Part shown: positions 6,690-57,618 of the stretch, in pieces | Position numbering within the stretch: position 1 is the stretch's first letter | How the letters are laid out: each line of letters begins with the position of its first letter | Source: Methanocellales archaeon | GTDB taxonomy: Archaea > Halobacteriota > UBA148 | Direction of reading: 5' to 3' | NCBI GenBank assembly: GCA_030019435.1 | Contig: JASEEV010000005.1 | Coordinates: 1 to 58,238, forward strand | DNA length: 58,238 nucleotides | The notes under the pieces: generated by a model | The model's database searches: none | What the model saw: only the letters and a program-made list of their open reading frames with translations | What the model was told of the DNA's origin: nothing | Made by a program: the position numbers and the translations under genes

Positions 6690-7950
6690 GATTCGTTCCC
6701 GTTCGTCCCGTCATGATCAGGTCACTCATCTTTTTGAAGAAGTCATATGAATCGTTGTTTTCTAGGAACACCATTGGGTTCAAGCCCAATTCTCCAGCTC
6801 GCCTGAGCGAGTTACCATCAGCTACCGCTCCTGCTGCATTCGTAAACCCATCGATCCCATCAGAATCGACAGAAGCGATGACAATTCTTTCCTCAGCGAT
6901 CTCATCCACACAGGCTAGAACGAACTCTTGGTTTGGTCCTCCCTTGCCTGAGCCTTTGACCTTGACGGTCGTCTCGCCCCCGCTGATCAGGCATGATACC
7001 TTCATCTTTTTGATAGCCTCTAGCTGTTTTGCCCCCTCCACTCTGGACTCTCCTGTAACGGCATCCAAGATCATAGATGAGTAGCCTAGCATCTGCGCTT
7101 TTTCTTTGGCGGCGGATAACATGATCTTGCTATCTAGAATTATCTCGTTATGGACTTTCTCGAAGACTGGATCTGCTGCCTTCGGCGTCTCCGCCAGATT
7201 GCCCGCTCGTCCTTCTTCTAATACCCTCCGGACATCTGGTGGCACTCTTGCCCAGAGATCATATTTTCGTAGTATCTCAACCGCATCTGCGTACGTGGAC
7301 TCATCCGGAGTGGTGGGTCCAGAGGCGATGACATCCGCTCTATTGCCCACGACATCGGATATGATCAAGCTTGCCAGTCTTGCTTGCACTCTGGCCGCTA
7401 ACTGACCCCCCTTGATCTGAGATAAGTGCTTGCGCACCACATTGATCTCATCGATTCTGGCTCCTGACCTGAGGAGGAGCTCATTTGTCTTTGCCGACGA
7501 TCTGATGGACACTCCTTGTTTGGGAAGTGTTAATAGGGCGGATCCTCCGCCTGAGACCAGGCATATGACGAGGTCATCGGACTTTGCCTTTTCAGCCAAC
7601 TTCAACAAACTTTTCGTCGCAAAGACGTTCTTTTCGGCTGGGACAGGGTGTTCCCCAATCAAAATCTTGATCCTTTTCGTTGCTTGAGGAGATGTGGTGA
7701 TGATCGCTCCATCACATATCCTGTCGCCCAGAATATTCTCCAGCTCAACGGCCATCTGTCCAGATGCCTTTCCAAATCCCACTACAAAAATCCGGTCCAC
7801 ACTCAGATCAAGATGTTCGATGGCATGCTGCAGAGCCCTTCTGGGATGAGCAGCCTGTAAGGCATGCTCCATAATGTCGAGAACATCAGCTCGCGCTTTT
7901 TTGAACTCGGTGGTAGCGTTTGACATCAGCTCCATCTTGTTCTGGATCAT
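6658..7950 (-). CDS. glycerate 2-kinase / hydroxypyruvate reductase family protein (DUF4147 + MOFRL)
   Basis: 430 aa with VVGFGKASGQMA, LVSGGGSALL, ISGGETTVKVKGSGKGGPNQE and TGTNLNDLRILL, typical of TtuD/GckA-type glycerate kinases. Confidence 0.8.
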   Translation of the reverse strand: MIQNKMELMSNATTEFKKARADVLDIMEHALQAAHPRRALQHAIEHLDLSVDRIFVVGFGKASGQMAVELENILGDRICDGAIITTSPQATKRIKILIGEHPVPAEKNVFATKSLLKLAEKAKSDDLVICLVSGGGSALLTLPKQGVSIRSSAKTNELLLRSGARIDEINVVRKHLSQIKGGQLAARVQARLASLIISDVVGNRADVIASGPTTPDESTYADAVEILRKYDLWARVPPDVRRVLEEGRAGNLAETPKAADPVFEKVHNEIILDSKIMLSAAKEKAQMLGYSSMILDAVTGESRVEGAKQLEAIKKMKVSCLISGGETTVKVKGSGKGGPNQEFVLACVDEIAEERIVIASVDSDGIDGFTNAAGAVADGNSLRRAGELGLNPMVFLENNDSYDFFKKMSDLIMTGRTGTNLNDLRILLRF

Positions 7951-26336: not shown

Positions 26337-27383
26337 ATGATCACAATGGAGTCATTTGTGCCAAGGTTAGTTGCATGGGAGCTCACCAGCGCTTGTAATC
26401 TGGAATGTGTACACTGTCGCGCATCAGCCACAAAAGAACGTGATGAGAATGAGCTATCTACGGAGGAGGCAAAGCATCTCATCGATGATATAACGAGATT
26501 TGCCAAGCCGGTATTGATTCTCAGCGGTGGCGAGCCGTTGCTCAGGGAAGACGTATATGAGATTGCAGAGTATGGAACCGACAATGGGCTGAAGGTGGTC
26601 CTAGCGACAAACGGGGCGCTTCTAACCCCAGAAGTGGCTACCAAATTGAAAAAAGTAGGAGTACAGCGTGTTAGCGTCAGTTTAGACGGAGCAAGTGCGA
26701 AGACGCATGATGATTTTAGGGGTATGCCTGGTGCGTTCGAAGGCGCATTAAGTGGCATAAATGTGCTCAAAGATGCAGATCTAAGTTTTCAGATCAATAC
26801 GACCATCACGAAACGCAACCTAGATGAGGTGCCAAAAATCCTGGATTTGGCGCTGGAGTTGGGTGTGGATGCATTGCACATCTTTCTGCTCGTGCCTGTT
26901 GGTAGGGGAAAAGAGATCGAGGGAGATGAAATTCTGCCAGAGGAATATGAGCGCGTGCTAGGTTGGCTCTATGACATGCAAGGGAAAGTGTCCATACAGC
27001 TGAAAGCCACATGTGCTCCACATTACTTCAGGATCATGCACCAAAGGTCGGGGAGAATCGAAAAGACGAGCGGGCTTGCGATGATGACCAGGGGGTGTCT
27101 AGCTGGTACAGGATTCTGCTTTATCTCTAAAATAGGTGAGGTGTATCCCTGTGGTTACTTACCTGTGCTAGCGGGAAGTATCAGGGAGCAACCATTCGAA
27201 CAAATTTGGCGTCAATCAAGAGTTTTCAACGACCTGAGAGACTTTAGCAAATTAAAGGGCAAATGCGGCATCTGTGAATTCAAAAGGGTTTGTGGCGGCT
27301 GCAGAGCAAGGGCGTATGCTGCCACAGGTGATCATCTGGCAGAGGAGCCATGCTGTATATATCAACCGAGGAATTGGCTATGA
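26337..27383 (+). CDS. ahbD: radical SAM/SPASM heme-pathway enzyme, AhbD-like (Fe-coproporphyrin III to heme) - AhbC/AhbD assignment tentative
   Basis: LTSACNLECVHC radical SAM motif and a C-terminal Cys cluster (GKCGICEFKRVCGGCRARA...PCCIY). NirJ-like, 348 aa, directly coupled to ahbA. Confidence 0.6.
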   Translation: MITMESFVPRLVAWELTSACNLECVHCRASATKERDENELSTEEAKHLIDDITRFAKPVLILSGGEPLLREDVYEIAEYGTDNGLKVVLATNGALLTPEVATKLKKVGVQRVSVSLDGASAKTHDDFRGMPGAFEGALSGINVLKDADLSFQINTTITKRNLDEVPKILDLALELGVDALHIFLLVPVGRGKEIEGDEILPEEYERVLGWLYDMQGKVSIQLKATCAPHYFRIMHQRSGRIEKTSGLAMMTRGCLAGTGFCFISKIGEVYPCGYLPVLAGSIREQPFEQIWRQSRVFNDLRDFSKLKGKCGICEFKRVCGGCRARAYAATGDHLAEEPCCIYQPRNWL

Positions 27384-36527: not shown

Positions 36528-37712
36528 GTGATCATATTCTCAAAGATCCTAGCCGACAAGGGGACGGTCTGGGATGCTCTACGAGCGAAAGAAATGGCTG
36601 CAGCAAAGGCTCCAGACGATCTCATCAGATTCTCATCTGAGACCAAGCCGGTGGTGATGTGGAACATCACACGAGCATGCAATCTTAGGTGCGCACACTG
36701 CTATGCCAGCGCAGCGCCGGGTCCGCATCCCGATGAATTGACGCTGGATGAGGGCATTCGATTTATTGATGAGCTCGCTGAGTTAGGGATTCCGATGCTC
36801 ATCTTTACCGGAGGTGAGCCGCTTGCGAGCAAGAACTTTTTTCCACTGGCATATCATGCAAAAGACGTTGGATTGCGCACCGTCATTTCGACGAATGGCA
36901 CCTTAATTACACCAGAGATCGCGCAAAAATTGAAGGATGCAGATATACGTTACGTAGGTGTAAGCATCGACGCAGCAACGCCAGGGATTCACGATAGGTT
37001 TAGGGGCGTCCAAGGCGCCTGGAAGATGGCGATGGATGGAATAAGGAATGCGATGGATGTTGGGTTGAGAACGGGCTTCAGGATCACCATCACCAAAGAT
37101 AACTGGAATCAGGTGCCTGCACTGCTGGATTTGGCAGTACAAATGAAGGTTCCACGTTTCTGCCTGTATCATCTTGTGCCAACCGGCAGAGGTGAAAACA
37201 TCGCAGCCCGGGATGTCACGAAGGCACAGAGGGTGGAAGTACTTAAGCATCTGTATGACAAAGCTATCGAGCTAAGGGATAAGGAGATCGAAATCCTAAG
37301 CACGGACTCTCCGATGGATGGCGTTTACATCCTTGAACGTCTTAAGAAAGAGGACCCAGAGCGCGTGGATGTTGTGAGGGAACTGCTGAAGATCTCAGGA
37401 GGATGTTCCATAGGGAATAAGGTTGCAAACGTCGATTATCTGGGCAACGTCAATCCATGTCATTTCGCTCCGCACAAGACCGTCGGAAATCTTCGGAAGC
37501 AGACGTTCAACGAAATCTGGAATGAAAGTCCGTGCGAGTTGCTGTGCGATTTGCGCAGACAGAAAGAATTGCTCAAAGGCAAATGCGGCATCTGCGATTA
37601 CAAGGACATCTGTGGGGGATGCAGGCAGAAGGCATGGTTCTTTAAGTGCGACTTCTTCGAGGAAGATCCGACCTGCATCTACAATCCAGAAACGAAGAGG
37701 ATTGAGGTGTAA
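36528..37712 (+). CDS. ahbC: radical SAM/SPASM heme-pathway enzyme, AhbC-like (didecarboxysiroheme to Fe-coproporphyrin III) - assignment tentative
   Basis: ITRACNLRCAHC, C-terminal GKCGICDYKDICGGCRQKA...PTCIYNP, 394 aa with an N-terminal extension. NirJ-like. Confidence 0.6.
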   Translation: MIIFSKILADKGTVWDALRAKEMAAAKAPDDLIRFSSETKPVVMWNITRACNLRCAHCYASAAPGPHPDELTLDEGIRFIDELAELGIPMLIFTGGEPLASKNFFPLAYHAKDVGLRTVISTNGTLITPEIAQKLKDADIRYVGVSIDAATPGIHDRFRGVQGAWKMAMDGIRNAMDVGLRTGFRITITKDNWNQVPALLDLAVQMKVPRFCLYHLVPTGRGENIAARDVTKAQRVEVLKHLYDKAIELRDKEIEILSTDSPMDGVYILERLKKEDPERVDVVRELLKISGGCSIGNKVANVDYLGNVNPCHFAPHKTVGNLRKQTFNEIWNESPCELLCDLRRQKELLKGKCGICDYKDICGGCRQKAWFFKCDFFEEDPTCIYNPETKRIEV

Positions 37713-37737
37713 AATCAGACCATAGTGGGATTGAAAT
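37708..37737 (+). CRISPR. solitary CRISPR-repeat-like 30-mer (copy 1)
   Basis: The sequence is TGTAAAATCAGACCATAGTGGGATTGAAAT. It ends in ATTGAAAT, the canonical archaeal 8-nt crRNA 5' tag sequence. It overlaps the ahbC stop codon, and a near-identical copy lies at 39553. Confidence 0.5.
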
Positions 37738-37778
37738 ATTCTAACAATTTTAGGCGAAATGCTTCTATTTCTGAAAGT

Positions 37779-38135
37779 CTACTTTGCTGGGGCTTTTCGC
37801 AATTCTGTTATTCTTTTGCGTATGGTCTCAATCAGTTCCTTTCTTAGATCTTCTCCAGCAGCTTTTATTTTAGATATAGTTCTGGATAGTTTTGTGTCTC
37901 CTATGGTATCCGCGATCCATTTGGAGAAATCCCCTCGGCTCATGTGAAATTCTACTGATGGTAAGGGAAGCGTCTGTAGCTTCTCCATGAAATCTTGGAG
38001 GCTTAAAGCGGTTTGATAAAGCGGCTTATGTAGGGCTTCATAGAAGTGGAAGCCCTTACTCGTATCGCTTACCGGACTTAGGATCCTCTCAAACAATTTT
38101 TTCCTCGCGGTCCCCTTCCCTCTTTTGGACATCAC
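37779..38135 (-). CDS. DUF5752-family protein
   Basis: 118 aa. GFHFYEALHKPLYQTALSLQDFMEKLQTLPLPSVEFHMSRGDFSKWIADTIGDTKL fits DUF5752 as I recall it. Confidence 0.5.
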   Translation of the reverse strand: MMSKRGKGTARKKLFERILSPVSDTSKGFHFYEALHKPLYQTALSLQDFMEKLQTLPLPSVEFHMSRGDFSKWIADTIGDTKLSRTISKIKAAGEDLRKELIETIRKRITELRKAPAK

Positions 38136-38177
38136 TTCAGGCCCCCAATTTTTCTATTACTAACTTTAGAGATAATA

Positions 38178-39495
38178 AAACTTTTGCACTTTTCATCTTA
38201 ACGCCAACTGGGCTACTTTATCCACGCTCCCCAATTCTTGGAATCCATGTATGATCTGATGAACTCCTCGAGAAGCACTCCTTGACATTCCTGCAGATGT
38301 CACCCACGGTCTCCAGCTTCTCTCTGATCCATTGGGTGAGGGAGGACAAGCGGACACATTCTAGTAGGGAATAGACACGAAGACCAGGAACAGGTGTTTA
38401 ACTATTCCTTGGAGACTCCGCATCTGGTATTCGCCTAGTCCTATGTGCTGCTTGCCGTCCCTGTAGAACGTCTCTATCTTCCATCGCTGTCTGTAGGTAG
38501 CGATGATCTTCCGAATGCCCCAGTCCAGTCTGTTGGACACTAACACCATCGCCCCATCATCATTTATATTTTTCTTGAGCAGCACGAGCCTGACAACACC
38601 GAGGTTGGACATTGGAAGGTCTAACGCATGTGCATATTGATATCTCTCCTCATCGCCTTCTATCTCGATCTCCTCGATTCTCTCATATTCGTTGGATGAC
38701 ACCCTCTTGGTCAGCTCCCCTAAGCCGATCTCCTCATCCCGATGGATCACCTTGCGATTCATCTTTGCCCTTGTAACCCAGTCCATTCCCTCTCGATCGC
38801 ATCGATCAACTCCTTCGCAAAGTACCATGTGTCGAACGCCACGGTATTGGCAGAGACGCCGTTATCAACGGCAGAGTTTATCAAGTCGATGGCTATCTCT
38901 ATCTTGGTCTTGAACTCGACTCCCATGGGCTCTGCCAGCTCCTCCTTGATGTACATCCTCAGATCGACTGGATACTGCCCCCTCTCATCAGAGTAGTGCG
39001 TGGAGACGAAGTTATGTCCTAAGACAGATCTGCCCTCTGATTTGCTGAAGATGAGGCCAACTCCGCTCATGCACCTGCCCGTCTTGGAGATGAGCACATC
39101 GTCCAGGATCAGATATCCGTTTCTTCTGCTCCTAGTCCTCCTGCCATGTTGCAGAACTCTGAGCCTTGTCTTGTTCACCTCCTCAACGTCCCAAGGCGAT
39201 CGCGTCAGGAACCTGTTCAGAGAGCTCTGATGGCATCTGTCCACGTACAGATCGTTGATGTCGGTGATGTTCGACCCGCCCTTCTCGCTTGCTATAAGCC
39301 CCAGCACATATCTCTCGAAATGAGCGTATTGAGGCTTGCTGAACATGGACCTGTATGCTCCTAAAAACTTCGTGATATTATGCGGATTGACTATTGGAAT
39401 CGGCATTCCCATCCCCCATCTCATGATGATGGCGAGAGAAGGGTTTATATGTTTTCTGGTGAGATTTGAGATCCTCTCAAAAAGTGCAAAAGTTT
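38178..39495 (-). mobile_element. IS element of the IS4 superfamily (IS4/IS701/ISH-like), ~1.32 kb
   Basis: Perfect 16-bp terminal inverted repeats: AAACTTTTGCACTTTT at 38178-38193, and its reverse complement at 39480-39495. A flanking direct repeat AGAGATAAT lies at 38168-38176 and 39496-39504 (up to TTTAGAGATAAT if the overlap is counted). The DDE transposase inside carries Y(2)R(3)E(6)K. Confidence 0.8.
38218..39424 (-). pseudogene. DDE transposase, interrupted by at least two frameshifts
   Basis: The N-terminal part is ORF 38759..39424 and the middle part is ORF 38361..38828 (YRQRWKIETFYRDGKQ). The C-terminal ~47 aa (SLLECVRLSSLTQWIREKLETVGDICRNVKE...) are readable in the third frame down to the stop at 38218. 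Confidence 0.75.
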
Positions 39496-39552
39496 AGAGA
39501 TAATTAATATTTCCTTTTACGTATTCTAGCGCTTTTTCCAAGCTCATTTTCA

Positions 39553-39582
39553 CGCTAAAATCAGACCATAGTGGAATTGGCA
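39553..39582 (+). CRISPR. solitary CRISPR-repeat-like 30-mer (copy 2, 3' end degenerate)
   Basis: The sequence is GCTAAAATCAGACCATAGTGGAATTGGCAT. Over 24 nt it has one mismatch to copy 1 (39555-39578 vs 37710-37733). It lies 3 nt from the dnaJ stop codon. Confidence 0.45.
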
Positions 39583-39585
39583 TCC

Positions 39586-40695
39586 TCATCTTTTCCAAAA
39601 TCCCATGAATTCTTCGCCTGCCTTCTCTAACTCCAACAGCAATTCTCTCTGTTTTTTACTCAGCTTCGTAGGCGTCTTTACTATCACTTTTACGTGCTGA
39701 TCTCCCCTGCCTCTTCCACGCAGGTGAGGAATGCCCATTCCTTTTAACCTAAACAGAGTGCCAGTCTGCGTGCCAGCAGGGATTTTCATCTTGGTCTTAT
39801 CCTCCAACGTTGGCACCTCTATCTCCGTTCCAAGGGCTGCTTGGGTAAAGCTGATAGGTATCTCGCAAATGACATCATCCCCGTCTCGCATAAAAACCTC
39901 ATGTTCTTGCACATGAACGACCACATACAAGTCTCCTGCAGGTCCGCCCCTGATGCCAGGCTCTCCTTCACCAGCGATTCTTAAGCGAGAGCCAGTATCT
40001 ACGCCAGGCGGAATTTTTACAGAGATCTTCCTTGTGCGGTGAACTTTTCCAGCACCATGGCAAGTGGGACAAGGTGCTTCTATGACTTCCCCCCCTCCAT
40101 GACATCTACTACATGTCGTGATAGAGGTAAACATTCCAAAAGCAGTCCTCCTGCTCTGCCTTATTTGCCCCGTTCCGTTGCAAGATGGACAGGTTTTCAC
40201 CCCTCCTGGTCTAGCGCCAGAGCCATTGCAAGCATCACAAGTCACCATGCGGGGTACCTCAACTTCCTTGGTGGTGCCAAAGGCAGCGTCCTCTAGAGTT
40301 ACATCTAGATCAGATATCAGATCAGCGCCTCTGGTAGGTCCATATCTCTCTCTTCTAGGACCAAAGAACATGTCGAAGATGTCTCTGCCAAAGAAATCCC
40401 TGCCAAAGAGATCCTCTATATCGCCAAAATGAGTGAAATCCCTCCAGGAGAAGCCTCCTCTGCCGAATATATCTCGCACAGCGGCATGACCGAACATGTC
40501 ATAATTAGCCCTCTTATCAGGGTCGACCAAAACTTCATATGCCTCAGAGATTTCCTTGAAGTTCTCTTCCGCCGCTTTTTTATCTGGGTTTACATCTGGA
40601 TGGTATTTCTTAGCTAATCGACGATAGGCTTTCTTTATCTCCTCTTGTGAGGCATTCCTGTCCACTCCAAGAACATCATAGTAATCACGTTTCAC
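39586..40695 (-). CDS. dnaJ: molecular chaperone DnaJ
   Basis: J domain with YHPDVNP, a G/F region, and four CxxCxG repeats ([32 protein letters not shown]). Confidence 0.95.
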
Positions 40696-49051: not shown

Positions 49052-49632
49052 TTGTGAAGGAACACTTGCAGGATGAAGTTGGGATTCATAAAATAGGCTG
49101 TCGGAGGTCGACAGGTTTAGTATGAATACATGGAAACAAAGGAGATGATCATGATGAGGAGGTGCAACTAAAATGATGATACTTATTACGTATATCATAA
49201 TTTTGTTGGGAATATTGTTGACTCTGCTCGGTGCTTTAAAGAGAAAAAACTTATGGAAAACTTCTGTTAGGCATAGGAATGACGATCACGATATTAGGAA
49301 TATATTTTATTTATGTTATTACCCTACCCTTGGGGGTAGATAAAATCATGGAATCTTCCGACAACCTAACTAAAAAATTTATTTTTGAACAGAAAGCACT
49401 TTCGTAGCAGAAAGCTTTTCAAGTAGAGCCCTCAAACCTTTATTACTTCACTCAGCACTTATGTTTTTATTTTAAATGGTCTGTAGGGTGACAGTTTCTT
49501 TATACACCCCATACCCCAAACAATACATGAGGTATTACAAACATGGTGTGCGCTTTCATCAAAATTTCGAATAAAAAATCAGAACTTTTAAGAAATCCTC
49601 TCTCAGAAAAGGATGGGAGAATAACTCGAAAG

Positions 49633-50385
49633 ATGCGCGCCAAAATATTTGTGAGAAAAATCTCAAAAGGGTTGCTACCATTCGATTATCAGTATGCCTT
49701 AGCTTCGATGTTATATGGGAAGCTCGCGCTTGGAAATATTCGTCTCGCAAACGAATCTCATTCTCACCAGGGCTTCAAGTTCTACAATTTTTCAAATCTG
49801 ATAATTCCGGATCGTCGCCCTTCACGCAAAGGATTGGCATTCGAGGATGCTCATTTCATCCTGACTTCGCCTGATGTCGAATTTGTCAGGAGCTTTGCAG
49901 AAGGTCTTTTGCAGGAGCAGGATTTTCATTTGTACGACCAGAATTTCATCGTGACCAAGATCGAAATCCTAGAGCAGAAGAAGCTTCCTAGTCCGTCCAC
50001 GTTCAGGACTATAAGCCCGATATTCATCAAAACGCTGCGAGAGGAGAATGGCGAGCTTAAGGAATGGGAACTCTATCCGATGGACGGAAAATTCCATGAA
50101 AATATTCACAAAAATCTTGTTGAGCGTTATACTGAGTACCATGGTGTGCCGCCCAAAAAAGATCACTTTCACATAACTCGCGTAAGAAGTTTTAAGGGAA
50201 AGCGCATTCTAATAGGCAGTGGCGAAAAAGCCACGCCCAGAAGATGCAGTCTGATGACTTTTGACCTAGAAGCCAGTCCTGAGTTGCTAAATTTTGCTTA
50301 CGACGCTGGCATAGGGGAAAAGAATGCGATGGGTTTTGGATGTGTGGAGGTTGTAGGAAACGGGAGAAACGATAATAACGAGTGA
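49633..50385 (+). CDS. cas6: CRISPR-associated endoribonuclease Cas6
   Basis: Duplicated ferredoxin-like pattern and a C-terminal Gly-rich loop GIGEKNAMGFGCVEV. The ATG at 49633 (MRAKIFV) is preferred over the ORF-track start at 49543. Confidence 0.8.
   Translation: MRAKIFVRKISKGLLPFDYQYALASMLYGKLALGNIRLANESHSHQGFKFYNFSNLIIPDRRPSRKGLAFEDAHFILTSPDVEFVRSFAEGLLQEQDFHLYDQNFIVTKIEILEQKKLPSPSTFRTISPIFIKTLREENGELKEWELYPMDGKFHENIHKNLVERYTEYHGVPPKKDHFHITRVRSFKGKRILIGSGEKATPRRCSLMTFDLEASPELLNFAYDAGIGEKNAMGFGCVEVVGNGRNDNNE
50320..50357 (+). repeat. cas6 3'-terminal segment, copy 1 of 3 (in situ, coding NAMGFGCVEVVG)
   Basis: AAGAATGCGATGGGTTTTGGATGTGTGGAGGTTGTAGG recurs at 51455 and 52151 with 3 mismatches each. 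Confidence 0.9.
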
Positions 50386-50412
50386 GTCGAAAGTTGTGTT
50401 AGAGGTGAAAAA

Positions 50413-50577
50413 GTGGACAAAACGCTAGAGGAGTTTTTGAAAAGCGAGAAAGTCAAGACCCTAAAACCAGACGAATGTGGTCTCATCTATGATGAGAAGA
50501 GGGGTTTGTTAATAGGGGTTTGCAATAAGGATGGAGAAATTAAGGTCACGTTGAAAAAGAAAATCGAGGAGATTTGA
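50413..50577 (+). CDS. hypothetical small protein (54 aa), below the ORF-track cutoff
   Basis: GTG start preceded by GAGGTGA. Its TGA stop directly abuts the TTG start of the next gene. Translation: VDKTLEEFLKSEKVKTLKPDECGLIYDEKRGLLIGVCNKDGEIKVTLKKKIEEI. Confidence 0.3.
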   Translation: MDKTLEEFLKSEKVKTLKPDECGLIYDEKRGLLIGVCNKDGEIKVTLKKKIEEI

Positions 50578-51018
50578 TTGTCGATTGTAGTGTCTAAGGG
50601 GACTATATTAGAGAAAATTAAAGGGCTCTTTAACGCTCACTCATGCATTGAACTTGCGTATCTGTTTGGCTCTATGGCTAATGAGAAAAGAGGAAAGTTG
50701 AGTGATGTAGACATAGGAGTATATCTCAATGATGCTTTGACCAAAGAGGAGAGGGATGAAGAGATGCTGAGCATCATCAGCGAGATCGTCTCGCTATTAA
50801 AAACGGATAAAGTAGATGTAGTGGTAATGAATGATGCACCTGTTTCCCTTAATTATGAGATAATAAAATGCAACGCCCCAATCTTCATGAGAGACGAAGG
50901 AAAAAGGGTTGATGTCGAGCAAACGATTTTGTCCAGATATCTAGATAGAAGGTATCATGAAAAGATGGCCTCTGACATATTCCTGAGAAAGGTGATGGAG
51001 GAAGGTATCACTTATTAG
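50578..51018 (+). CDS. minimal nucleotidyltransferase (MNT/MntA-like antitoxin)
   Basis: GS-x(n)-DxD motif (LFGSMANEKRGKLSDVDIGVY), 146 aa, TTG start. Confidence 0.75.
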   Translation: MSIVVSKGTILEKIKGLFNAHSCIELAYLFGSMANEKRGKLSDVDIGVYLNDALTKEERDEEMLSIISEIVSLLKTDKVDVVVMNDAPVSLNYEIIKCNAPIFMRDEGKRVDVEQTILSRYLDRRYHEKMASDIFLRKVMEEGITY

Positions 51019-51026
51019 GTGAGATT

Positions 51027-51449
51027 ATGGATGAAAAGGAAAAAATATCCCTCAAGTTACGATCGATGAAAAAGTATGTGAATTTTTTATCGTCAAAAAG
51101 AAACGTGTCAAGGGAAGAACTGGAAGGAAATTATGAGTTAAGAAGCGCTATCGAAAGGAACTTCCAGTTGGCGATAGAATCAACGCTTGATATAGGCGAG
51201 ATCATCATCTCTGTTGAGGGGTTTGAAAAGCCCGAGGATTACAAGAGCGTGATATTGATTCTTGGAAAGCACGATATTTTGCCAAAGGATTTTGCTGGAG
51301 AATTTGCATTAGCGGCTGGCTTTAGAAATGTCTTGGTTCACATGTATGAAGAAGTCGATATAAATATCCTCTATAATTACTTGCATAACAAGCTGGATGA
51401 TTTTGATAAGTTTGCGAAGTACATGGTTGAATACATCAGGTCGAAGTAA
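51027..51449 (+). CDS. HEPN-domain toxin, DUF86/HepT-like
   Basis: 140 aa with the Rx4-6H motif (FRNVLVHMYEEVD). It is paired with the upstream MNT. Confidence 0.75.
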   Translation: MDEKEKISLKLRSMKKYVNFLSSKRNVSREELEGNYELRSAIERNFQLAIESTLDIGEIIISVEGFEKPEDYKSVILILGKHDILPKDFAGEFALAAGFRNVLVHMYEEVDINILYNYLHNKLDDFDKFAKYMVEYIRSK

Positions 51450-51454
51450 ATGCA

Positions 51455-51489
51455 AATGCAATGGGCTTTGGGTGTGTGGAGGTTGTAGG
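51455..51489 (+). repeat. cas6 3'-terminal segment, copy 2 of 3
   Basis: AATGCAATGGGCTTTGGGTGTGTGGAGGTTGTAGG still encodes NAMGFGCVEVVG. Its TGA is embedded in a GTGA with the GTG start of the next gene. Confidence 0.85.
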
Positions 51490-51852
51490 GTGAGAGAAGA
51501 AGTATCAAATTGGTTGAAACGAGCTTTGAATGATCTGGATACCGCTAGATACAATTTAAACGGTAAAAGATATGATGCTGCTGCCTTTTTCGCCCAGCAA
51601 GCTGCAGAGAAAGCACTAAAAGCCCTGCAAATTAAAAGGTTAGGTAGGTTTGAGAGAACTCATGATTTGGTCCTCCTTGCTAAAAGTGTTAACAGTCCAA
51701 AAGAAATTATTCAGCTTTGTGGGATTGTAGCACCTTTTTACACTATAACGCGGTATCCTGATGTGGAGATCCCTTCTGATAAAAGCAAAATTTCTTCTGT
51801 CGTCGAGGCAAGTGAAAAGGTGGTGGCATGGGTAGAGCAAAACCTGAGATAA
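51490..51852 (+). CDS. HEPN domain protein (PF05168-like)
   Basis: GTG start 6 nt after GGAGGT. LKRALNDLDTARYNL...AAFFAQQAAEKALKAL...RTHDL, 120 aa. The ORF-track N-terminal extension (51397) runs through the repeat and the HepT 3' end. Confidence 0.7.
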   Translation: MREEVSNWLKRALNDLDTARYNLNGKRYDAAAFFAQQAAEKALKALQIKRLGRFERTHDLVLLAKSVNSPKEIIQLCGIVAPFYTITRYPDVEIPSDKSKISSVVEASEKVVAWVEQNLR

Positions 51853-52151
51853 TAGGTGTGCTGAAGAAATTTAAAGAAAGCATGCCAAAGAAATATAGGA
51901 TAGAAAAAATCATACTCTTTGGCTCGCAGGCAACGGGAAAAACAAAAGAATCTAGTGATATAGATCTTATAATAGTCAGCAGGGAAAGAAAAAAGTTGGA
52001 ACTGCTCCCAAAGCTTTATCATGAATGGCATTTGGTCCAGAAGATCGATTATCCGGTTGACTTCCTTTGCTACACGCCAGAAGAGTTTGAGAAAAAGAAA
52101 AAACAGATCACGATTGTAAGAGAAGCAGTAAAAGAAGGAATAGTGATATGA
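51828..52151 (+). CDS. minimal nucleotidyltransferase (MNT)
   Basis: IILFGSQATGKTKESSDIDLIIVS (GS...DxD), 107 aa. It overlaps the preceding HEPN gene. Confidence 0.75.
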   Translation: MGRAKPEIIGVLKKFKESMPKKYRIEKIILFGSQATGKTKESSDIDLIIVSRERKKLELLPKLYHEWHLVQKIDYPVDFLCYTPEEFEKKKKQITIVREAVKEGIVI

Positions 52152-52188
52152 AGAATGCGATGGGCTTTGGATGAGGGGAGGTTGTAGG
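52151..52188 (+). repeat. cas6 3'-terminal segment, copy 3 of 3
   Basis: AAGAATGCGATGGGCTTTGGATGAGGGGAGGTTGTAGG. The Cas6-tail frame is now broken by TGA (KNAMGFG*). It is followed by GTGAAAGTTG, as downstream of copy 1 (GTGAGTCGAAAGTTG). Confidence 0.85.
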
Positions 52189-52227
52189 GTGAAAGTTGCT
52201 ACATTATTTTACAGAGATGTGTTTTAA
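52189..52227 (+). other. 12-codon mini-ORF abutting the cas3 start (possible coupling leader)
   Basis: GTG AAA GTT GCT ACA TTA TTT TAC AGA GAT GTG TTT TAA is followed immediately by the cas3 ATG. The GTG lies 6 nt after the GGAGGT of repeat copy 3. Confidence 0.3.
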
Positions 52228-54468
52228 ATGAGTGTAGATGATGATTTCAGGTTGATAACAGGATTTAAAGAATTTTATCCTCACCAAAGAGAAACTATAG
52301 AATATCTTTCAAATGGCAAATCTGTAGTTCTTCGTGCTCCTACGGGCTCTGGAAAGTCAGAGGCGGTAGTTTTACCATTTCTAACAAATATGAACAAAAC
52401 TTTGCCCTCTCAGATGTTGTATTCTCTACCTGTTAGAACATTAGTTGACGACTTGAGCAGCAGATTTGCAAAGTATTCAAATGTTAAGTGGTTAAGTGTA
52501 GCAGGACATCATGGAAAAAGAATTGAAACCCCGTTATTTTATCCCCCAATAATTGTCACTACCATCGATCAAACTGTTGGCGCTTACGTTTGCACTCCGC
52601 TAAGCTTATCCCTTAGGCATGGAAACATTCCTGCTGGGGCTGTTAGTTCTGCTCTATTAGTGTTTGATGAAGTGCATACATTTGATCCCGAACGGGCTTT
52701 ACAATCAGCATTAATCTTGGCAAGGCATTCTAATAGACTGAACTTGCCTTTTGTTTTTATGTCAGCCACGATGCCGGACTCATTTATTAAAAAATTAGAG
52801 GGAATAATTGATTTCGAGAAAGTTGATGCAGATGAGAAGGACATCCCTATAAGAAAGAACAGAGATGTGTTGGTTTATTGGGAAGGTAGAAAATTAACGA
52901 GTAAAAACGTAATGGAGAAATACAACACATCGAAAGGTAAGACAATCGTTGTATGTAACACTGTAAGTAAAGCTCAAGAAATTTATAGGGAGTTAAAGGG
53001 AAAAGTTGATTGCGAACTCGTGTTACTTCATTCTAGATTTTTAGAGGAGGATCGGAATGAAAAAGAGGAAAAGTTAAAGGAGATATTTAAAAAGGGCTCC
53101 GAAAGAATAGGTATTCTCGTATCAACCCAAGTTATAGAGGTCGGTTTAGATATTTCTTGCGATACTATGCTTACAGAATTGAGTCCTATTGACTCTCTGA
53201 TTCAAAGAGCTGGAAGGTGCGCCAGATGGGGTGGAAAAGGACGTTTGTATGTGTATGACGTCGAAAAACCAAATCCATATAGGAAAGATCTAGTAGATGA
53301 AACAAGGAAGAAAATAAAAGAGATTGACGGGAGGAAACTTAGTTGGGAAGCTGAAAAAGCTCTTGTTAATGATATTCTAGGAGAATATGTTGGAGAATGG
53401 CTGAACATAGAAAATACGGCAAGAATATTAAACACTCTCGCTCAAGCCGCATTTGAAGGAAATAGAAAACTAACAGAAGATGCTGTAAGAGAGACCTTTT
53501 CATGTGAAATAAGCATCCATGATGATCCAAGCACTCTTGAGAATGCATATGGATTGAAAAAAATAAAAGTACACGCTGGGGTTCTAAGAAAGTTTTTCAA
53601 GGATTCGGAGCCAATAGTGTGGAAATTAGTAGATAATAATATAATCTCTGATGAATCTCCTATCATTATCCCTCGGAAAATTTCTAGTGCTGAGGAAATT
53701 TTGCCTTACGGGTTCTACATAATCCATCCAAACTACATTTCATACGATAAGCATAATGGATTATTATTTGAGCCACGAGGAGAGAGCTTTGAGTGTATGG
53801 GGAGGGGAGAGCGTAGAGCACCCGAGTATGAATACAAAAGAGAGACTTGGGTTGAACACTCTATGAGAACTCTAGAAGTTTTTGAGAGTATTTTTTTACC
53901 TCGCTATAAATTTGCTATCGATAAGTTTGCAAAAGCATGGAAAGTAGAATTTAGCGAGTTTTTAGAAGAATTAAATTTGGTGATGTTGCTCCATGACATT
54001 GGGAAGTTGAATAAGGAATGGCAAAAGAAAGTTGGATGGCAAGAAGGTGAAGAACCACTAGCGCACTCTGGAGAGGGAAGCATTGAAGGTCTTCCATCAC
54101 ATGCTCCTATATCTGCTTATGCTTTAAGTCGTATATTTTATAAATGGGGTACAGAAATTGGTCAAGCGTTTTACTTTGCCTTAGCACATCACCACAGTGT
54201 GAGAGCCTCAAAAATGTCTAAATATAGACTTATCGATAACTGGGAAAGTTATCTGAGGCAATTATCAATATCAAATGTTTATGTCGAAGGGATCCACTCA
54301 AGAGGAGAGGGGAAGTTATTTGGAAAGTTCCCAGAGCTAATTAATCATGAGAAACTTTATCACACGTATACTTTTATTTCAAGGCTATTAAGATTGTCCG
54401 ATAGAACGGCTACAGGGGGAGGTGAGGATGCAGTATTACGTTATGAAAACTGGCATGGAAATGTTTGA
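52228..54468 (+). CDS. cas3: Cas3 helicase-nuclease with the HD domain at the C-terminus (Cas3'-Cas3'' fusion order)
   Basis: Walker A APTGSGKSE, DEVH box (LVFDEVHTF), SATMP, QRAGRCAR. The C-terminal part then has HD motifs (WVEHS, LLHDIGKL, LAHHHS, LSDRTAT). Confidence 0.88.
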   Translation: MSVDDDFRLITGFKEFYPHQRETIEYLSNGKSVVLRAPTGSGKSEAVVLPFLTNMNKTLPSQMLYSLPVRTLVDDLSSRFAKYSNVKWLSVAGHHGKRIETPLFYPPIIVTTIDQTVGAYVCTPLSLSLRHGNIPAGAVSSALLVFDEVHTFDPERALQSALILARHSNRLNLPFVFMSATMPDSFIKKLEGIIDFEKVDADEKDIPIRKNRDVLVYWEGRKLTSKNVMEKYNTSKGKTIVVCNTVSKAQEIYRELKGKVDCELVLLHSRFLEEDRNEKEEKLKEIFKKGSERIGILVSTQVIEVGLDISCDTMLTELSPIDSLIQRAGRCARWGGKGRLYVYDVEKPNPYRKDLVDETRKKIKEIDGRKLSWEAEKALVNDILGEYVGEWLNIENTARILNTLAQAAFEGNRKLTEDAVRETFSCEISIHDDPSTLENAYGLKKIKVHAGVLRKFFKDSEPIVWKLVDNNIISDESPIIIPRKISSAEEILPYGFYIIHPNYISYDKHNGLLFEPRGESFECMGRGERRAPEYEYKRETWVEHSMRTLEVFESIFLPRYKFAIDKFAKAWKVEFSEFLEELNLVMLLHDIGKLNKEWQKKVGWQEGEEPLAHSGEGSIEGLPSHAPISAYALSRIFYKWGTEIGQAFYFALAHHHSVRASKMSKYRLIDNWESYLRQLSISNVYVEGIHSRGEGKLFGKFPELINHEKLYHTYTFISRLLRLSDRTATGGGEDAVLRYENWHGNV

Positions 54469-55498
54469 TGCCTGTAGAGCTTATGGTCTTGGATTAGTGC
54501 TGGATACCCTTAGGGAGGATGACGAAAAAGAGGTAATTGTAAGTAATGTTGGAATATATTACTCTGTTGAAGGGCCTGAAATTGATAAATCTGCCGTTAA
54601 TAGACTAATGCACCTCCTTGACCCAAATTTAGCGTGGAAAGAAACCTTTCTAACTATACAAAGAAGTCGAAGAGGCGACCTTAAGAAGGCGACAAAAAAT
54701 AAGATCGATAAGATAGGAGATACACTTAGGGATGACGTAGATCAGATACTTAGAAAGTATGAAAAACCAGTCCCAGTTGAATTTTCCTCATCAAAAGGGG
54801 AAACACTCTATCAATCTATGGAGCTAGCTGCGACTAAGGGCTATAGAGTTCCTATAAGATCTAAAGTGGCGTATACTGAAGGCTCATCTATTAAGGTACC
54901 AGCCGAGGATTGGGCTCTCGCAGCTTTAGGCGAGGCTCACTTCACCGTATGGAAGGGTGGAGTGGCATTAGCTACTATTATTCCTCAACCAGAGAAGGTA
55001 ATGGTTATGCATTGCCGAGACATTCGAAATAGTATTGATCAAACTAATGTAAATAGGGTTAGCACATTAACCACACTCGCTCATATGGCGGTGCTTTTAA
55101 TGAGTGAAATAAGAAATAGGAAAAGAAGTGGCGACCCTTTCATAGACAAATTTTCTTCCTTGATTTATGGTGCAATGAGACGGACAGGAGGTCAATTGAA
55201 ACCTGCTAGTGGAGGCATCTTTCCTTTAGATTTTCTTTACAATCTGATGGAGAGTGACCCAGAGATATCAGGTGAAATTTTTGAAATGTGGGATCATGTC
55301 TTTAGGATTCGAAATGCAAAGGGTCGTTCACTCGAAGATCTTTCACTTTCTCTCTCCGAATTTATTGCACATCCAATGATGGAGACGCAGGAAAACTATC
55401 TTAAAGTCCATCTAAGATACTTAATAAAGGATGATGTGAAAATTAGAGCATACACAGAAGAGTGTATAAAAGAGGTGATGAAAAATGTCAGAAGTTAA
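54428..55498 (+). CDS. cas8a: Cas8-like large subunit, small form (Cas8a2/Csa4-like by size and position)
   Basis: ~356 aa ORF overlapping the cas3 end and followed by small-subunit, cas7 and cas5 genes. I rely on context and size, not on a recognised motif. Confidence 0.5.
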   Translation: MQYYVMKTGMEMFDACRAYGLGLVLDTLREDDEKEVIVSNVGIYYSVEGPEIDKSAVNRLMHLLDPNLAWKETFLTIQRSRRGDLKKATKNKIDKIGDTLRDDVDQILRKYEKPVPVEFSSSKGETLYQSMELAATKGYRVPIRSKVAYTEGSSIKVPAEDWALAALGEAHFTVWKGGVALATIIPQPEKVMVMHCRDIRNSIDQTNVNRVSTLTTLAHMAVLLMSEIRNRKRSGDPFIDKFSSLIYGAMRRTGGQLKPASGGIFPLDFLYNLMESDPEISGEIFEMWDHVFRIRNAKGRSLEDLSLSLSEFIAHPMMETQENYLKVHLRYLIKDDVKIRAYTEECIKEVMKNVRS

Positions 55499-55841
55499 AT
55501 TAGAAGAAATTTTTAAAAATGAAGCAATTGAGGATTTCGGAGATGCCCTTAGAAAGGCTATTCGAATGGAAGATATTCAGGATTATGCATCGTTAGTAGA
55601 ACTAGAGTATGTGGAGTCAAAGGAAGGGTTTGCAGAAACCATAAAGAAGTTTTTGAGACGCTACCATACCCATGCAAAGAAGCTGCATCTTAGAATACCA
55701 AAAGAGGAAAGCCTTAATAGTATTATGGGATTGGTGGATAAATATGGTGTAAAACTTGTGAGGGCTGCTCTAATTTCGCACGCTTTAGTAAAATCTTCTA
55801 GAGAAGAAGAATCTGGAGAAAGAACTGAAGGAGGAGAGTAG
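55485..55841 (+). CDS. cas11: putative Cascade small subunit (Cas11/Csa5-like)
   Basis: 118-aa predicted helical protein between the large subunit and cas7. It overlaps cas8 by 14 nt and ends 1 nt before cas7. Confidence 0.45.
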   Translation: MSEVKLEEIFKNEAIEDFGDALRKAIRMEDIQDYASLVELEYVESKEGFAETIKKFLRRYHTHAKKLHLRIPKEESLNSIMGLVDKYGVKLVRAALISHALVKSSREEESGERTEGGE

Positions 55842-55842
55842 G

Positions 55843-56889
55843 ATGGAAAAGAAAAGTAAAGAAACAGTGTATGAGATTGCAATTTTAGGAAGGGCAACAT
55901 GGAACTTGCATTCTTTGAGCAATGAGGGGACCGTGGGGAATGTAACAGAACCAAGGACTATCATCCTTGCAGATGGAACGCAGACAGATGGTGTTTCTGG
56001 TGAAATACTAAAACATATGCATGCCGAATATATGTGGGCTCTTGAAAACAACAAAGATAACTTCTGTGAAGTATGTAAGAAGTTCCGCCCAGAAAGGGCT
56101 GATGGAAATCCTAAGGTGAGAAAAAAATCTAATGCAGAGGATGCAGTAAAAGAGGCTATTGAATGCGAACTTTGCGATGTTCATGGATTCCTTGTACAAC
56201 GGCCACCCGCTACTCGAGAGTCTACAATAGAATTCGGCTGGGCTGTCGGTATTCCATATGTTCAAAGGAGCATCCATGTGCACTCAAGACACGCATTACA
56301 TGAGGCGTATCTTGAAATTGATGAAGAAAGAGAAGAAGGTAAATGGGAAAAAGAAAAGTGTAGTGTTCGAGAGTGCAAGACAGAAGAAAGTGAAAGTAAG
56401 CTCTATAAAGTGAAGAACAGATGGTATTGTGAAACGCATCTCCCTGTTCGTACGCCTCAAATGCTCTATCATCGTCCCACACGCTCGGGAGCCTACGGAG
56501 TAGTCTCAGTGTTTCAACCGTGGAGGATAGGGTTGAATAACGTGAACTTTATATATGATATCAATGACGATGATAAAAGAAAATTTAGGTATAAGCTGGC
56601 ACTAAAAGCGTACCAGGCAATGTTCATGAGACCAGAAGGGGCGATGACAAGTACGAGATTACCGCATACTGAGAACTTTGAGGGCGTAATTGTTGTTTCA
56701 AAGACAAACTTTCCAGTACCAGTGATCAGTCCGCTTAAGGATGATTACAAAGAGCAAATAAACAGTATTAAAGCAACTATAGACAGTGGAAATAGCATCG
56801 ATATAATAAAATTCGATAGCATTTCGAACTTCGTAGAGAAGATGGACGGTTTATTAGATAAGGGCCCATATAAAGTTGAATTCGAATAG
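55843..56889 (+). CDS. cas7: Cas7 backbone protein (Csa2/DevR-Cst2 family)
   Basis: N-terminal ILGRATWNLHSLSNEGTVGNVTEPRT...DGVSGEILKHMH matches the Csa2/DevR pattern (xLxSLNxxGxxGN ... SGexlKH). Confidence 0.8.
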   Translation: MEKKSKETVYEIAILGRATWNLHSLSNEGTVGNVTEPRTIILADGTQTDGVSGEILKHMHAEYMWALENNKDNFCEVCKKFRPERADGNPKVRKKSNAEDAVKEAIECELCDVHGFLVQRPPATRESTIEFGWAVGIPYVQRSIHVHSRHALHEAYLEIDEEREEGKWEKEKCSVRECKTEESESKLYKVKNRWYCETHLPVRTPQMLYHRPTRSGAYGVVSVFQPWRIGLNNVNFIYDINDDDKRKFRYKLALKAYQAMFMRPEGAMTSTRLPHTENFEGVIVVSKTNFPVPVISPLKDDYKEQINSIKATIDSGNSIDIIKFDSISNFVEKMDGLLDKGPYKVEFE

Positions 56890-56937
56890 AAAGAGAAGAA
56901 GTAGAAAGACATCATAACTTCTTGGTAAGGTGAGCAA

Positions 56938-57618
56938 ATGGTCTGGTTTAAGGCAGAATATGAATTTGGTAGCCTATTCTCCTATAGAATGCCCGACTTC
57001 TCCTCCCAATATGCTTTATCCTTGCCTTTACCAGGTCCTTCTACAATAAAATTAGCAACAGTCGCAACTGCCATAGAAAGCACGGGAAATCTGAAATATG
57101 GGAAGGAAATTTTTGAACTTATAAAGAATGCTGAAATTAAAATAGGGATGCCAAAGAGAATTGGAATATCTAACGTATTGATTAAAAGGTTGAAGAAGAA
57201 GAAAGATAAAAAGGAATTAGAAACAACTTTTGGCATCCGTGGTTATGTGCATTTTCTCGAACCAATCGAAATTTATGTAAATGCAAAAGAGTATGCGAGG
57301 GATATTGGAAATTTATTAAGAAGGATCAGACGATTTGGTACTTCTGATTCTCTTGTCTGCTGCAAAAGTCCTATTAGCGAGGAAGAGCCACCAGAAAATT
57401 GTATCGAGGCTGTTGATCATTTTCCTGAAAAAGCTGAAAGAAACATGCTCGTAGTTCCTGTAAAAGACTTAAATCAAGATGAAAAAGTCAGGTTCGAGCA
57501 TGTAAATCCCTATGATGAAGCCCCAAGTAAAGACGTTTTCGTAAGGAAGTTCTACTTCATTCCCATTCTCAATTCACGAGAAGGGAAAAATTGGACAGTT
57601 TATGAAGTAGCTCCTTGA
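56938..57618 (+). CDS. cas5: Cas5 (Cas5a-like)
   Basis: N-terminal FSYRMPDFSSQYALSLPLPGPSTIKLATVATAI (Cas5 P-x-PS-T-hydrophobic-G/A motif), 226 aa, located after cas7. Confidence 0.7.
   Translation: MVWFKAEYEFGSLFSYRMPDFSSQYALSLPLPGPSTIKLATVATAIESTGNLKYGKEIFELIKNAEIKIGMPKRIGISNVLIKRLKKKKDKKELETTFGIRGYVHFLEPIEIYVNAKEYARDIGNLLRRIRRFGTSDSLVCCKSPISEEEPPENCIEAVDHFPEKAERNMLVVPVKDLNQDEKVRFEHVNPYDEAPSKDVFVRKFYFIPILNSREGKNWTVYEVAP

Follow-up and report, generated by a model that had tools for sequence, protein, structure and literature searches.

The stretch of DNA analysed here (the window, 58,238 nt of contig JASEEV010000005.1 from the Methanocellales archaeon assembly GCA_030019435.1) contains two 30-nt sequences in direct orientation which, judged from their letters, are genuine CRISPR repeats of an archaeal 30-nt family with an AUUGAAAK handle. 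Copy 1 overlaps the end of an ahbC-like heme biosynthesis gene and copy 2 adjoins dnaJ. With a probability that we put at about 0.65, they are the vestiges of a small CRISPR array between these two genes, at a present or former CRISPR-cas site, and are subject to incidental cleavage by Cas6 at most; probably they form no working array and have no function of their own. An initial annotation of the window had listed a decayed array with a replaced interior as the first of three explanations, next to solitary repeats serving as Cas6 processing or regulatory sites and to repeat-mediated capture of a gene cassette, and this first explanation agrees with the mini-array or cas6 gene that relatives carry at exactly the same site.

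Both copies belong to a CRISPR repeat family of archaea

A one-genome-per-species scan with the query ATCAGACCANNNTGGRATTG returned, at the least, many regularly spaced arrays of this family (all array counts given here are among the matches listed). GTTAAAATCAGACCATAGTGGGATTGAAAT is the verbatim array repeat in L070 (39 copies), L032 and L065, GCTAAAATCAGACCATAGTGGGATTGAAAT is that of L045 and L106, both metagenome-assembled genomes named ‘Methanocellales archaeon’, and GATAAAATCAGACCATAGTGGGATTGAAAG is that of L014 and L027; the arrays of L040 hold 64 copies of the family repeat. L106 represents a relative of the window organism, since its proteins are 60-70% identical to those of window genes. 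Mini-arrays of two to three family repeats stand among housekeeping genes in L032 and L065. Agreement with the consensus amounts to 28/30 positions in copy 1 and 26/30 in copy 2. According to the initial annotation, its hypothesis would fall if no array in this genome or its relatives used the repeat; this objection fails because arrays in related archaea (L070, L032, L045, L106 and others) carry it verbatim.

Within the window, the 24-nt core shared by the copies occurs exactly twice at up to one mismatch, with no match in any of 100 dinucleotide shuffles. A profile hidden Markov model (HMM) of the family, trained on 35 distinct repeats taken from arrays, scored copy 1 at E = 7.6e-9 and copy 2 at E = 4.1e-7, while the next match in the window reached only E = 0.31, so that both the mismatch scan and the HMM bear out the earlier statement that there is no further copy. 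The position first reported for copy 1 was correct and that for copy 2 lay one base early; the distance between them is 1816 bp instead of the reported 1815 bp, and the ~490 bp expected without the intervening insertion sequence (IS) compares well with 488 bp in an IS-free relative (L137). Rfam gave no match over the whole window at gathering thresholds. In a permissive scan copy 1 aligned with CRISPR-DR39 (26.9 bits, E = 0.29, gathering threshold 39) and copy 2 went unreported, and copy 1 is therefore a relative of this model but no member by the Rfam threshold. The repeat is essentially unstructured, with a weak 3-bp hairpin and a folding z of -0.2 to -1.0 against shuffles; unstructured repeats are typical of types I-A, I-B and III, where the Cas6 cut leaves an 8-nt 5' handle, as described in the literature. 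Length, the AAATCAGACC...GGGATTGAAAK layout and the weak 3-bp hairpin are shared with the 30-nt repeats of Methanocaldococcus, Archaeoglobus and Pyrococcus (CRISPR-DR39-like in Rfam), which likewise occur in many small arrays far from cas genes. Unlike those arrays, the window copies have no regular spacing and no leader: in place of regular, unique spacers of ~25-50 nt there are 1816 bp here and 488 bp in L137, with a gene inside, and copy 1 is joined to the ahbC stop, with the promoter-like motif found ahead of the mini-array in the relatives L133 and L134 missing here.

Copy 1 resembles a deletion junction and copy 2 a terminal repeat

As the initial annotation had noticed, copy 1 lies in the end of the ahbC-like gene, of which it covers the last codon and the TAA stop (37710-37712). 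Its first 12 nt on the 37708 side, TGTAAAATCAGA, correspond to the native ahbC end and downstream sequence, and its last 18 nt, CCATAGTGGGATTGAAAT, are repeat-derived without any change. Copy 1 hence looks like a hybrid junction and not like a full repeat, which the initial annotation had not recognized. Its 3'-terminal 8 nt (37730-37737) read ATTGAAAT, and the Cas6 cut is predicted between 37729 and 37730. Copy 2 begins with GCT, a 5' end also seen in L045 and L106 arrays, and is indeed degenerate at its 3' end, where GGCAT stands for the GAAAT of the family repeat and the 3'-terminal 8 nt, ATTGGCAT, form a broken handle. Terminal repeats usually combine an array-type 5' end with a degenerate 3' end, and copy 2 probably is one; the degenerate state is also usual for the distal repeat of mini-arrays (Shmakov et al. 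2023). All four differences between the copies are located at their ends (TG vs GC, AA vs GC) and therefore fit a junction and a terminal repeat better than a fresh duplication. The dnaJ stop (39586-39588) begins 2 nt beyond the end of copy 2.

A 29-codon open reading frame (ORF) on the minus strand (39494-39583, MPIPLWSDFSVKMSLEKALEYVKGNINYL and stop) takes its ATG from the reversed GGCAT of copy 2's degenerate 3' end, starts 2 bases after the dnaJ stop and runs through copy 2 into the tail of a truncated ORF. It is probably meaningless.

Table 1. Features of the window discussed in the text (positions refer to the window; insert X is the low-GC segment between the copies).
Feature	Position	Strand	Remarks
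ahbC-like radical SAM/SPASM gene	36528-37712	+	last gene of the heme operon
Copy 1	37708-37737	+	TGTAAAATCAGACCATAGTGGGATTGAAAT; apparent hybrid of ahbC end and CRISPR repeat
Insert X, left part	37738-38176	-	DUF5752/OrfY-like gene 37779-38132, 41 nt of 3' flank, 5' leader to the IS target site
IS701-family insertion sequence	38177-39492	-	transposase split into ORFs 38759-39424 and 38361-38828
Insert X, right part	39493-39553	-	3' end of truncated upstream ORF, ..SLEKALEYVKGNINYL and stop (39494-39496)
Copy 2	39554-39583	+	GCTAAAATCAGACCATAGTGGAATTGGCAT; full-length repeat, GCT 5' end, degenerate 3' end
dnaJ	39586-40695	-	first gene of the dnaJ-dnaK-grpE-hsp20 block flanking copy 2
Promoter-like motif	49575-49600	+	AAAATCAGAACTTTTAAGAAATCCTC; upstream of cas6, 11.8 kb from ahbC
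Array-less type I (I-A-like) interference operon	49633-57618	+	GC 39%
HEPN/MNT cassette 1			MntA 50578-51018, HepT 51027-51449
HEPN/MNT cassette 2			HEPN protein within ORF 51397-51852, MNT nucleotidyltransferase 51828-52151

The ahbC site in related archaea

The initial annotation had proposed comparing the ahbC-dnaJ junction with that of related genomes, and relatives indeed carry a mini-array or cas6 there. Their loci were found through AhbC homologs, and the order of events proposed below rests on six to eight related contigs. In L134 (AhbC 90%), ahbC is followed by the promoter-like motif AAAATCGGAACTTTTAAGAAATCCTC, 22 nt, a repeat, a 36-nt spacer, a second repeat and, within ~30 nt of the latter, a 3'-truncated PALP gene. 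L133 (AhbC 90%) has the motif, a decayed repeat (23/30 to the consensus), the spacer of L134 (28/36) and then dnaJ-dnaK-grpE, all with an ahbC-dnaJ gap of 157 bp only and no DUF5752 gene; between L133 and L134 the mini-array, 78-80% identical compared with 95% for the flanks, diverges faster than these. In L135 and L136 (AhbC 86-87%), ahbC and the motif are directly followed by cas6, which shares 84% DNA and 90% protein identity with the window cas6. L141 (AhbC 88%) and L142 (85%) have the ahbC stop fused to the repeat as in the window, a junction that can be read directly from the contigs. Their repeat is decayed (TGTAACATCCGACCATGACGGATTGAAAT in L141, TGTAAAATCAGACCATAATAGAATTGATTT in L142), with three to five changes including an indel in the 18 repeat-derived nt, some of them at positions invariant in arrays, and neither contig has a second repeat. 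The cargo after the repeat consists of a Fic/DOC gene (1384-2295), whose stop lies 2 nt past the repeat, and then the thermosome gene in L141, and of a ParE/Gp49-like toxin with a small partner ORF (6511-6967) and then hsp20 in L142. In these two contigs the ahbC/repeat junction behaves as a hotspot for accessory genes of the defence or addiction type.

The motif AAAATCAGAACTTTTAAGAAATCCTC, which looks like an archaeal TATA-type promoter, is located before cas6 in the window, L135 and L136, and before the mini-array in L133 and L134. The 5' part of the CRISPR repeat recurs as the first 9 nt of this motif, which coincide with the putative deletion junction of copy 1. The post-stop motif region is all that the region upstream of cas6 shares with the ahbC locus; a candidate decayed ahbC 3' end upstream of cas6 (49400-49565) was rejected, as 346/500 shuffles scored equally well.

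A stepwise erosion seems to account for these states. The ancestor would have possessed ahbC, the motif AAAATCAGAACTTTTAAGAAATCCTC and a repeat-spacer-repeat unit, as still found in L134. Copy 1 might then have arisen by a deletion that joined the 9-nt AAAATCAGA following the ahbC stop to the same 9-mer in the first repeat, the two being ~57 nt apart in an L134-like ancestor; this would have removed the promoter-like motif and fused the repeat to the stop codon in the junction common to L141 and L142. The sequence after the ahbC stop is GTGTAAAATCAGAAGTTTTAAG in the native state of L135 and GTGTAAAATCAGACCATAGTGG in the window, and the copy 1 junction was placed with the L135 counterpart GAGGTGTAAAATCAGAAGTTTTAAG and with L134; a junction at AAAATCAGA explains why copy 1 starts with TGT and not with GTT or GCT. 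Subsequently, a 488-bp low-GC fragment from another locus would have replaced or entered the interval between the copies, and an IS701 element would have been inserted in the window's strain only. We infer both the order of these events and the mechanism by which the fragment arrived. Copy 1 would be transcribed by read-through as the 3' tail of the heme-operon mRNA only, and an active I-A-like Cas6 may clip this tail at 37729/37730. Copy 2 is in sense only on RNA antisense to DUF5752, the IS and dnaJ, and is therefore probably never used.

A low-GC insert and an IS701 element separate the copies

The IS belongs to the IS701 family by its DDE transposase, terminal inverted repeats (ACTTTTGCACTTTT), a target-site duplication of 9-12 bp, (TTT)AGAGATAAT, at 38165-38176 and 39493-39504, and an empty site in L137. 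NF033540 matches both transposase halves (profile positions 9-203 and 199-354 of 363), and given the split the IS may be inactive. It was inserted 33-44 nt upstream of the DUF5752 start codon, a range that reflects the assignment of the 9-12-bp duplication. The IS-free allele is seen directly in L137 (GCA_030019155.1, 99% identical), where dnaJ, copy 2, 488 bp, copy 1 and ahbC follow each other and the 24-nt core is identical in both copies.

The remaining segment, insert X, looks horizontally acquired; its GC content is 40.6% vs 48-50% for ahbC, dnaJ and dnaK. The DUF5752 gene in it is intact (117 aa), and the predicted model of its product (pLDDT 79) resembles OrfY of Thermoproteus tenax (PDB 4cso, probability 0.99). 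Upstream of DUF5752, the last ~19 codons of a truncated ORF are retained and reach the 5' border of copy 2 within ~5 nt; a search of this ORF by sequence against the PDB gave no match. L183 (DUF5752 62% identical), the only locus with a somewhat close homolog, contains the same ORF tail, ..ERALDFIKGKIKSI, with the stop at the same place, and its homology to insert X begins at the 5' border of copy 2, yet there the ORF is longer and no repeat is present. As the ORF is truncated in insert X and longer in L183, insert X appears as a fragment cut from a larger locus, with the mapping referring to one border and one distant homolog. That the DUF5752 segment, on this sequence evidence, is a fragment starting inside the upstream ORF goes beyond the initial annotation. 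No repeats flank the DUF5752 homologs in L138-L140, L183 and L184, and the gene is thus not generally associated with repeats.

Alternative explanations

It is improbable that the copies are functional repeat units, with Cas6 (49633-50385) cutting copy 1 on the heme-operon transcript and thereby defining the ahbC mRNA's 3' end or its stability, or releasing a AUUGAAAU-tagged RNA resembling CRISPR RNA that, being antisense to DUF5752, would guide Cascade as a regulator like CreA, CreR or crlRNA. Such a role would suit the consensus handle and intact cleavage region of copy 1, its sense orientation directly after a transcribed operon, the Cas6 encoded ~10-12 kb away with homologs beside family arrays, the orthologous repeat of L141/L142, which is no more diverged than ahbC overall, and the wide occurrence of standalone regulatory repeats in loci of type I, among them ~10% of the archaeal I-A loci (Shmakov et al. 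2023). Known regulatory mini-arrays, however, have two repeat-like units around a spacer of ~30-40 nt, are located within cas loci and pair with the promoter of a cas or toxin gene (Shmakov et al. 2023), and CreA of CreTA, CreR and the crlRNAs, while likewise comprising ectopic repeats, a degenerate second repeat and a type I system with toxin-antitoxin cargo, have this spacer-sized gap, cas-locus position and promoter pairing in common, all three of which are missing from copies spaced by 488 or 1816 bp at a site 10 kb from the cas genes. Furthermore, copy 1 is without the promoter-like motif preceding the L133/L134 mini-array, copy 2 would require transcription antisense to two genes besides having a broken handle, and no plus-strand promoter was found for either. 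Compared with the window, neither the 36 nt that follow each copy nor the spacers of the relatives showed anything above shuffled controls, which argues against a guide of the CreA/CreR/crlRNA type. The Cas6 processing or regulatory role first suggested thus does not agree with the spacing of the copies, with the lack of a plus-strand promoter and of target complementarity in the window, or with the loss of consensus positions in the orthologous repeat of the sister lineages L141 and L142, where array-invariant positions have changed and the cargo after the repeat differs.

We also regard it as unlikely that insert X was actively captured at a repeat, either by Cas1-Cas2 integration of a ‘giant spacer’ with repeat duplication or by recombination of repeat-bearing DNA, e.g. 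a circular or linear molecule with one or two repeats recombining with chromosomal repeats, which would make the repeats a cassette-acquisition site. The arrangement of repeat, insert and repeat in direct orientation, with a 24-nt core identical in L137, is what capture would leave behind, and the foreign GC content and random-looking cut of insert X, starting inside an ORF no more than ~5 nt from copy 2's 5' border, point the same way. So do the tight borders of the dnaJ stop at copy 2 and the Fic stop at the L141 repeat, the cargo directly after the repeat, which differs in every relative (with the truncated PALP gene of L134 again within ~30 nt), and L037, where two intact repeats 1148 bp apart surround msrAB. 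Off-target integration with direct duplication of repeat-like sequence around the inserted DNA is known from the literature for the related Cas1-Cas2 of P. furiosus and is thought to seed new arrays; the known events insert ~30-40 bp, in contrast to the 488 bp of insert X. Moreover, the copies differ at both ends, which is not expected if one repeat had been freshly duplicated, cas1, cas2 and cas4 are absent from the window, and one border only of insert X has been mapped, by means of a single distant homolog. The length of prespacers is measured by Cas1-Cas2, and no natural spacer of gene size is known to us. In the window, the HEPN/MNT cassettes are bracketed by direct repeats that consist of ordinary coding sequence, the 3' end of cas6, so that short-homology recombination explains such layouts without CRISPR-specific chemistry, and L119 illustrates that two neighbouring arrays may merely have a small gene between them. 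It is likewise improbable that family repeats are acquisition sites for gene-sized DNA, at which the adaptation integrase or border-aimed recombination set the 488-bp ‘giant spacer’ exactly between two repeats. If they were, the process would also underlie the L037 msrAB segment and the changing cargo after the ahbC-fused repeat, and if the border fit proved recurrent and integrase-made, CRISPR adaptation chemistry would occasionally move whole genes. Improbable, too, is the idea that nothing was inserted and DUF5752 always stood between two neighbouring family arrays, each now shrunk to one repeat through deletions between repeats. The different 5' ends of the copies and the L119 case, where a 375-nt insert containing a 67-aa ORF separates arrays whose repeats are slightly different, would be in line with it, as would the multiple short arrays typical of genomes using the family repeat, Methanocaldococcus among them. 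On the other hand, L133 has in the same ahbC...dnaJ neighbourhood 157 bp with one decayed repeat and a spacer but no DUF5752, copy 2 is preceded by the abutting truncated ORF instead of a leader-like sequence, and the GC content of insert X differs from that of its neighbours.

The L037 segment is the only other kb-scale repeat pair among ~120 loci (matches listed). In this contig (Ca. Methanolliviera sp. GoM_asphalt, CABGHH010000166.1), intact direct repeats at 1153-1182 and 2301-2330 surround an msrB-msrA fusion gene, with an eIF-2B-like gene on one side of the segment and a DinB-like (translesion polymerase-like) ORF on the other as judged by eye from the translation. In L119 (Archaeoglobaceae SKYB47, 457-862), the 375-nt segment contains, besides its ORF, a ribosome-binding site of its own and a terminator-like hairpin, and the repeats of the flanking arrays differ in one base (CCAAGATGG vs CCAAAATGG). 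Two further candidates were rejected: an integron-like cassette system, as no integrase or recombinase is encoded nearby and the repeats fold no better than shuffles, and an att site or integrative element, as the 488-bp interior is free of integrase genes and the IS comes with inverted repeats and a target duplication of its own.

Several observations weigh against a decayed array as well. Copy 1 still shows no change in its 18 repeat-derived nt, and the L141/L142 repeat retains ~83% identity over 30 nt vs 79-83% for ahbC overall and 56-64% at third codon positions, although relaxed constraint on this repeat is suggested, with sites too few for a selection test. The existence of two gene orders, with cas6 adjoining ahbC or 11.8 kb off, beyond the dnaJ...pdxT block, is another point, as either may be ancestral. 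A comparison of the copies' surroundings with the 36-nt spacer of the relatives gave no significant trace of it (p ~0.5-0.67), and therefore ‘replaced’ and ‘inserted’ are indistinguishable for insert X. No array of this repeat was tied to the window's own genome, either among the scan matches listed or by walking out from the cas operon: in look-ups with the Cas11-like protein and Cas5, contigs of close relatives stop 70-155 nt past cas5 without a repeat, and the window itself continues with 620 bp of non-repeat sequence after cas5. Finally, the foreign sequence reaches to within ~5 nt of copy 2 on its 5' side, and L037, too, has two intact repeats around a gene; together, the tight border fit and L037 could point to a mechanism specific for repeat borders.

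The cas operon and other genes of the window

The array-less cas operon with cas6 that the initial annotation had placed ~10 kb from the copies is present at 49633-57618. It consists of cas6, two HEPN/MNT toxin-antitoxin cassettes, cas3 (helicase and HD), cas7 and cas5a, with two ORFs without family assignment at the positions of cas8 and cas11, and neither cas1, cas2, cas4 nor an array was found within the window. Homologs of its Cas6 (33-48% identity) are encoded beside family arrays in L059, L079 and L101, and relatives of its Cas5 are named subtype I-A in the sources. With a GC content of 39% vs 46-50% in the rest of the window, the operon looks horizontally acquired. The cas6 3' end (codons ..NAMGFGCVEVVG..) occurs in three direct copies (50323-50364, 51455-51496 and 52154-52195) of ~36-42 nt and 81-100% identity, which bracket the two HEPN/MNT cassettes between cas6 and cas3, and the cassettes look as if they had been gained one after another by recombination across the conserved end of cas6. 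The Logan contig L185 begins inside this cas6-end repeat.

Two paralogous radical SAM/SPASM heme genes are located at 26337-27383 and 36528-37712. The former encodes AhbD (heme b synthase; 563 bits, above cutoff) and the latter an AhbC/NirJ1-like protein that stays under the equivalog cutoffs; their similarity gives rise to the repeats D2 and D3 in the repeat scan.

Solitary repeats elsewhere and probable CRISPR locus erosion

Single repeats without spacers are known as solitary repeat units of viruses and plasmids and as RNA anti-CRISPRs (Racr), which could bind Cas6 or subunits of Cascade. These serve counter-defence on mobile elements, whereas the window copies are chromosomal, located between housekeeping genes and syntenic across relatives. 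Among viral-class contigs of IMG/VR, L005/L012, L006, L008 and L013 carry single family copies ending in ATTGAAAT or ATTGAAAC, which may be solitary repeat units; the viral-contig scan yielded 12 single matches only and no arrays, and L006 is identical to L092, a contig of the Methanobrevibacter filiformis genome.

The closest likeness is found in the remnants of empty V-A loci in Francisella and in degraded type III mini-arrays (Shmakov et al. 2023). They too consist of one or two repeats with a degenerate distal one, relatives have cas genes or an array at the site, no target is detectable, and sister lineages show decay. For Francisella, a solitary repeat together with a degenerate repeat was explained as the remnant of a lost CRISPR-cas locus (Shmakov et al. 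2023). In contrast to those remnants, the window copies are split by a gene-bearing fragment and an IS, one of them appears to have been fused to a housekeeping stop codon by a microhomology deletion, and a cas operon persists 10 kb away. Most likely, the pair is a new instance of this already known type of relic, fairly ordinary and without any new system behind it.

Read as the vestige of a decayed array, the pair would offer a clean worked example of CRISPR locus erosion with intermediate states visible in relatives, from a microhomology deletion and a surviving terminal repeat to cargo turnover beside the remnant and a recent IS insertion. It also calls for caution in genome annotation, as isolated and seemingly conserved repeats can be junction artefacts of array decay.

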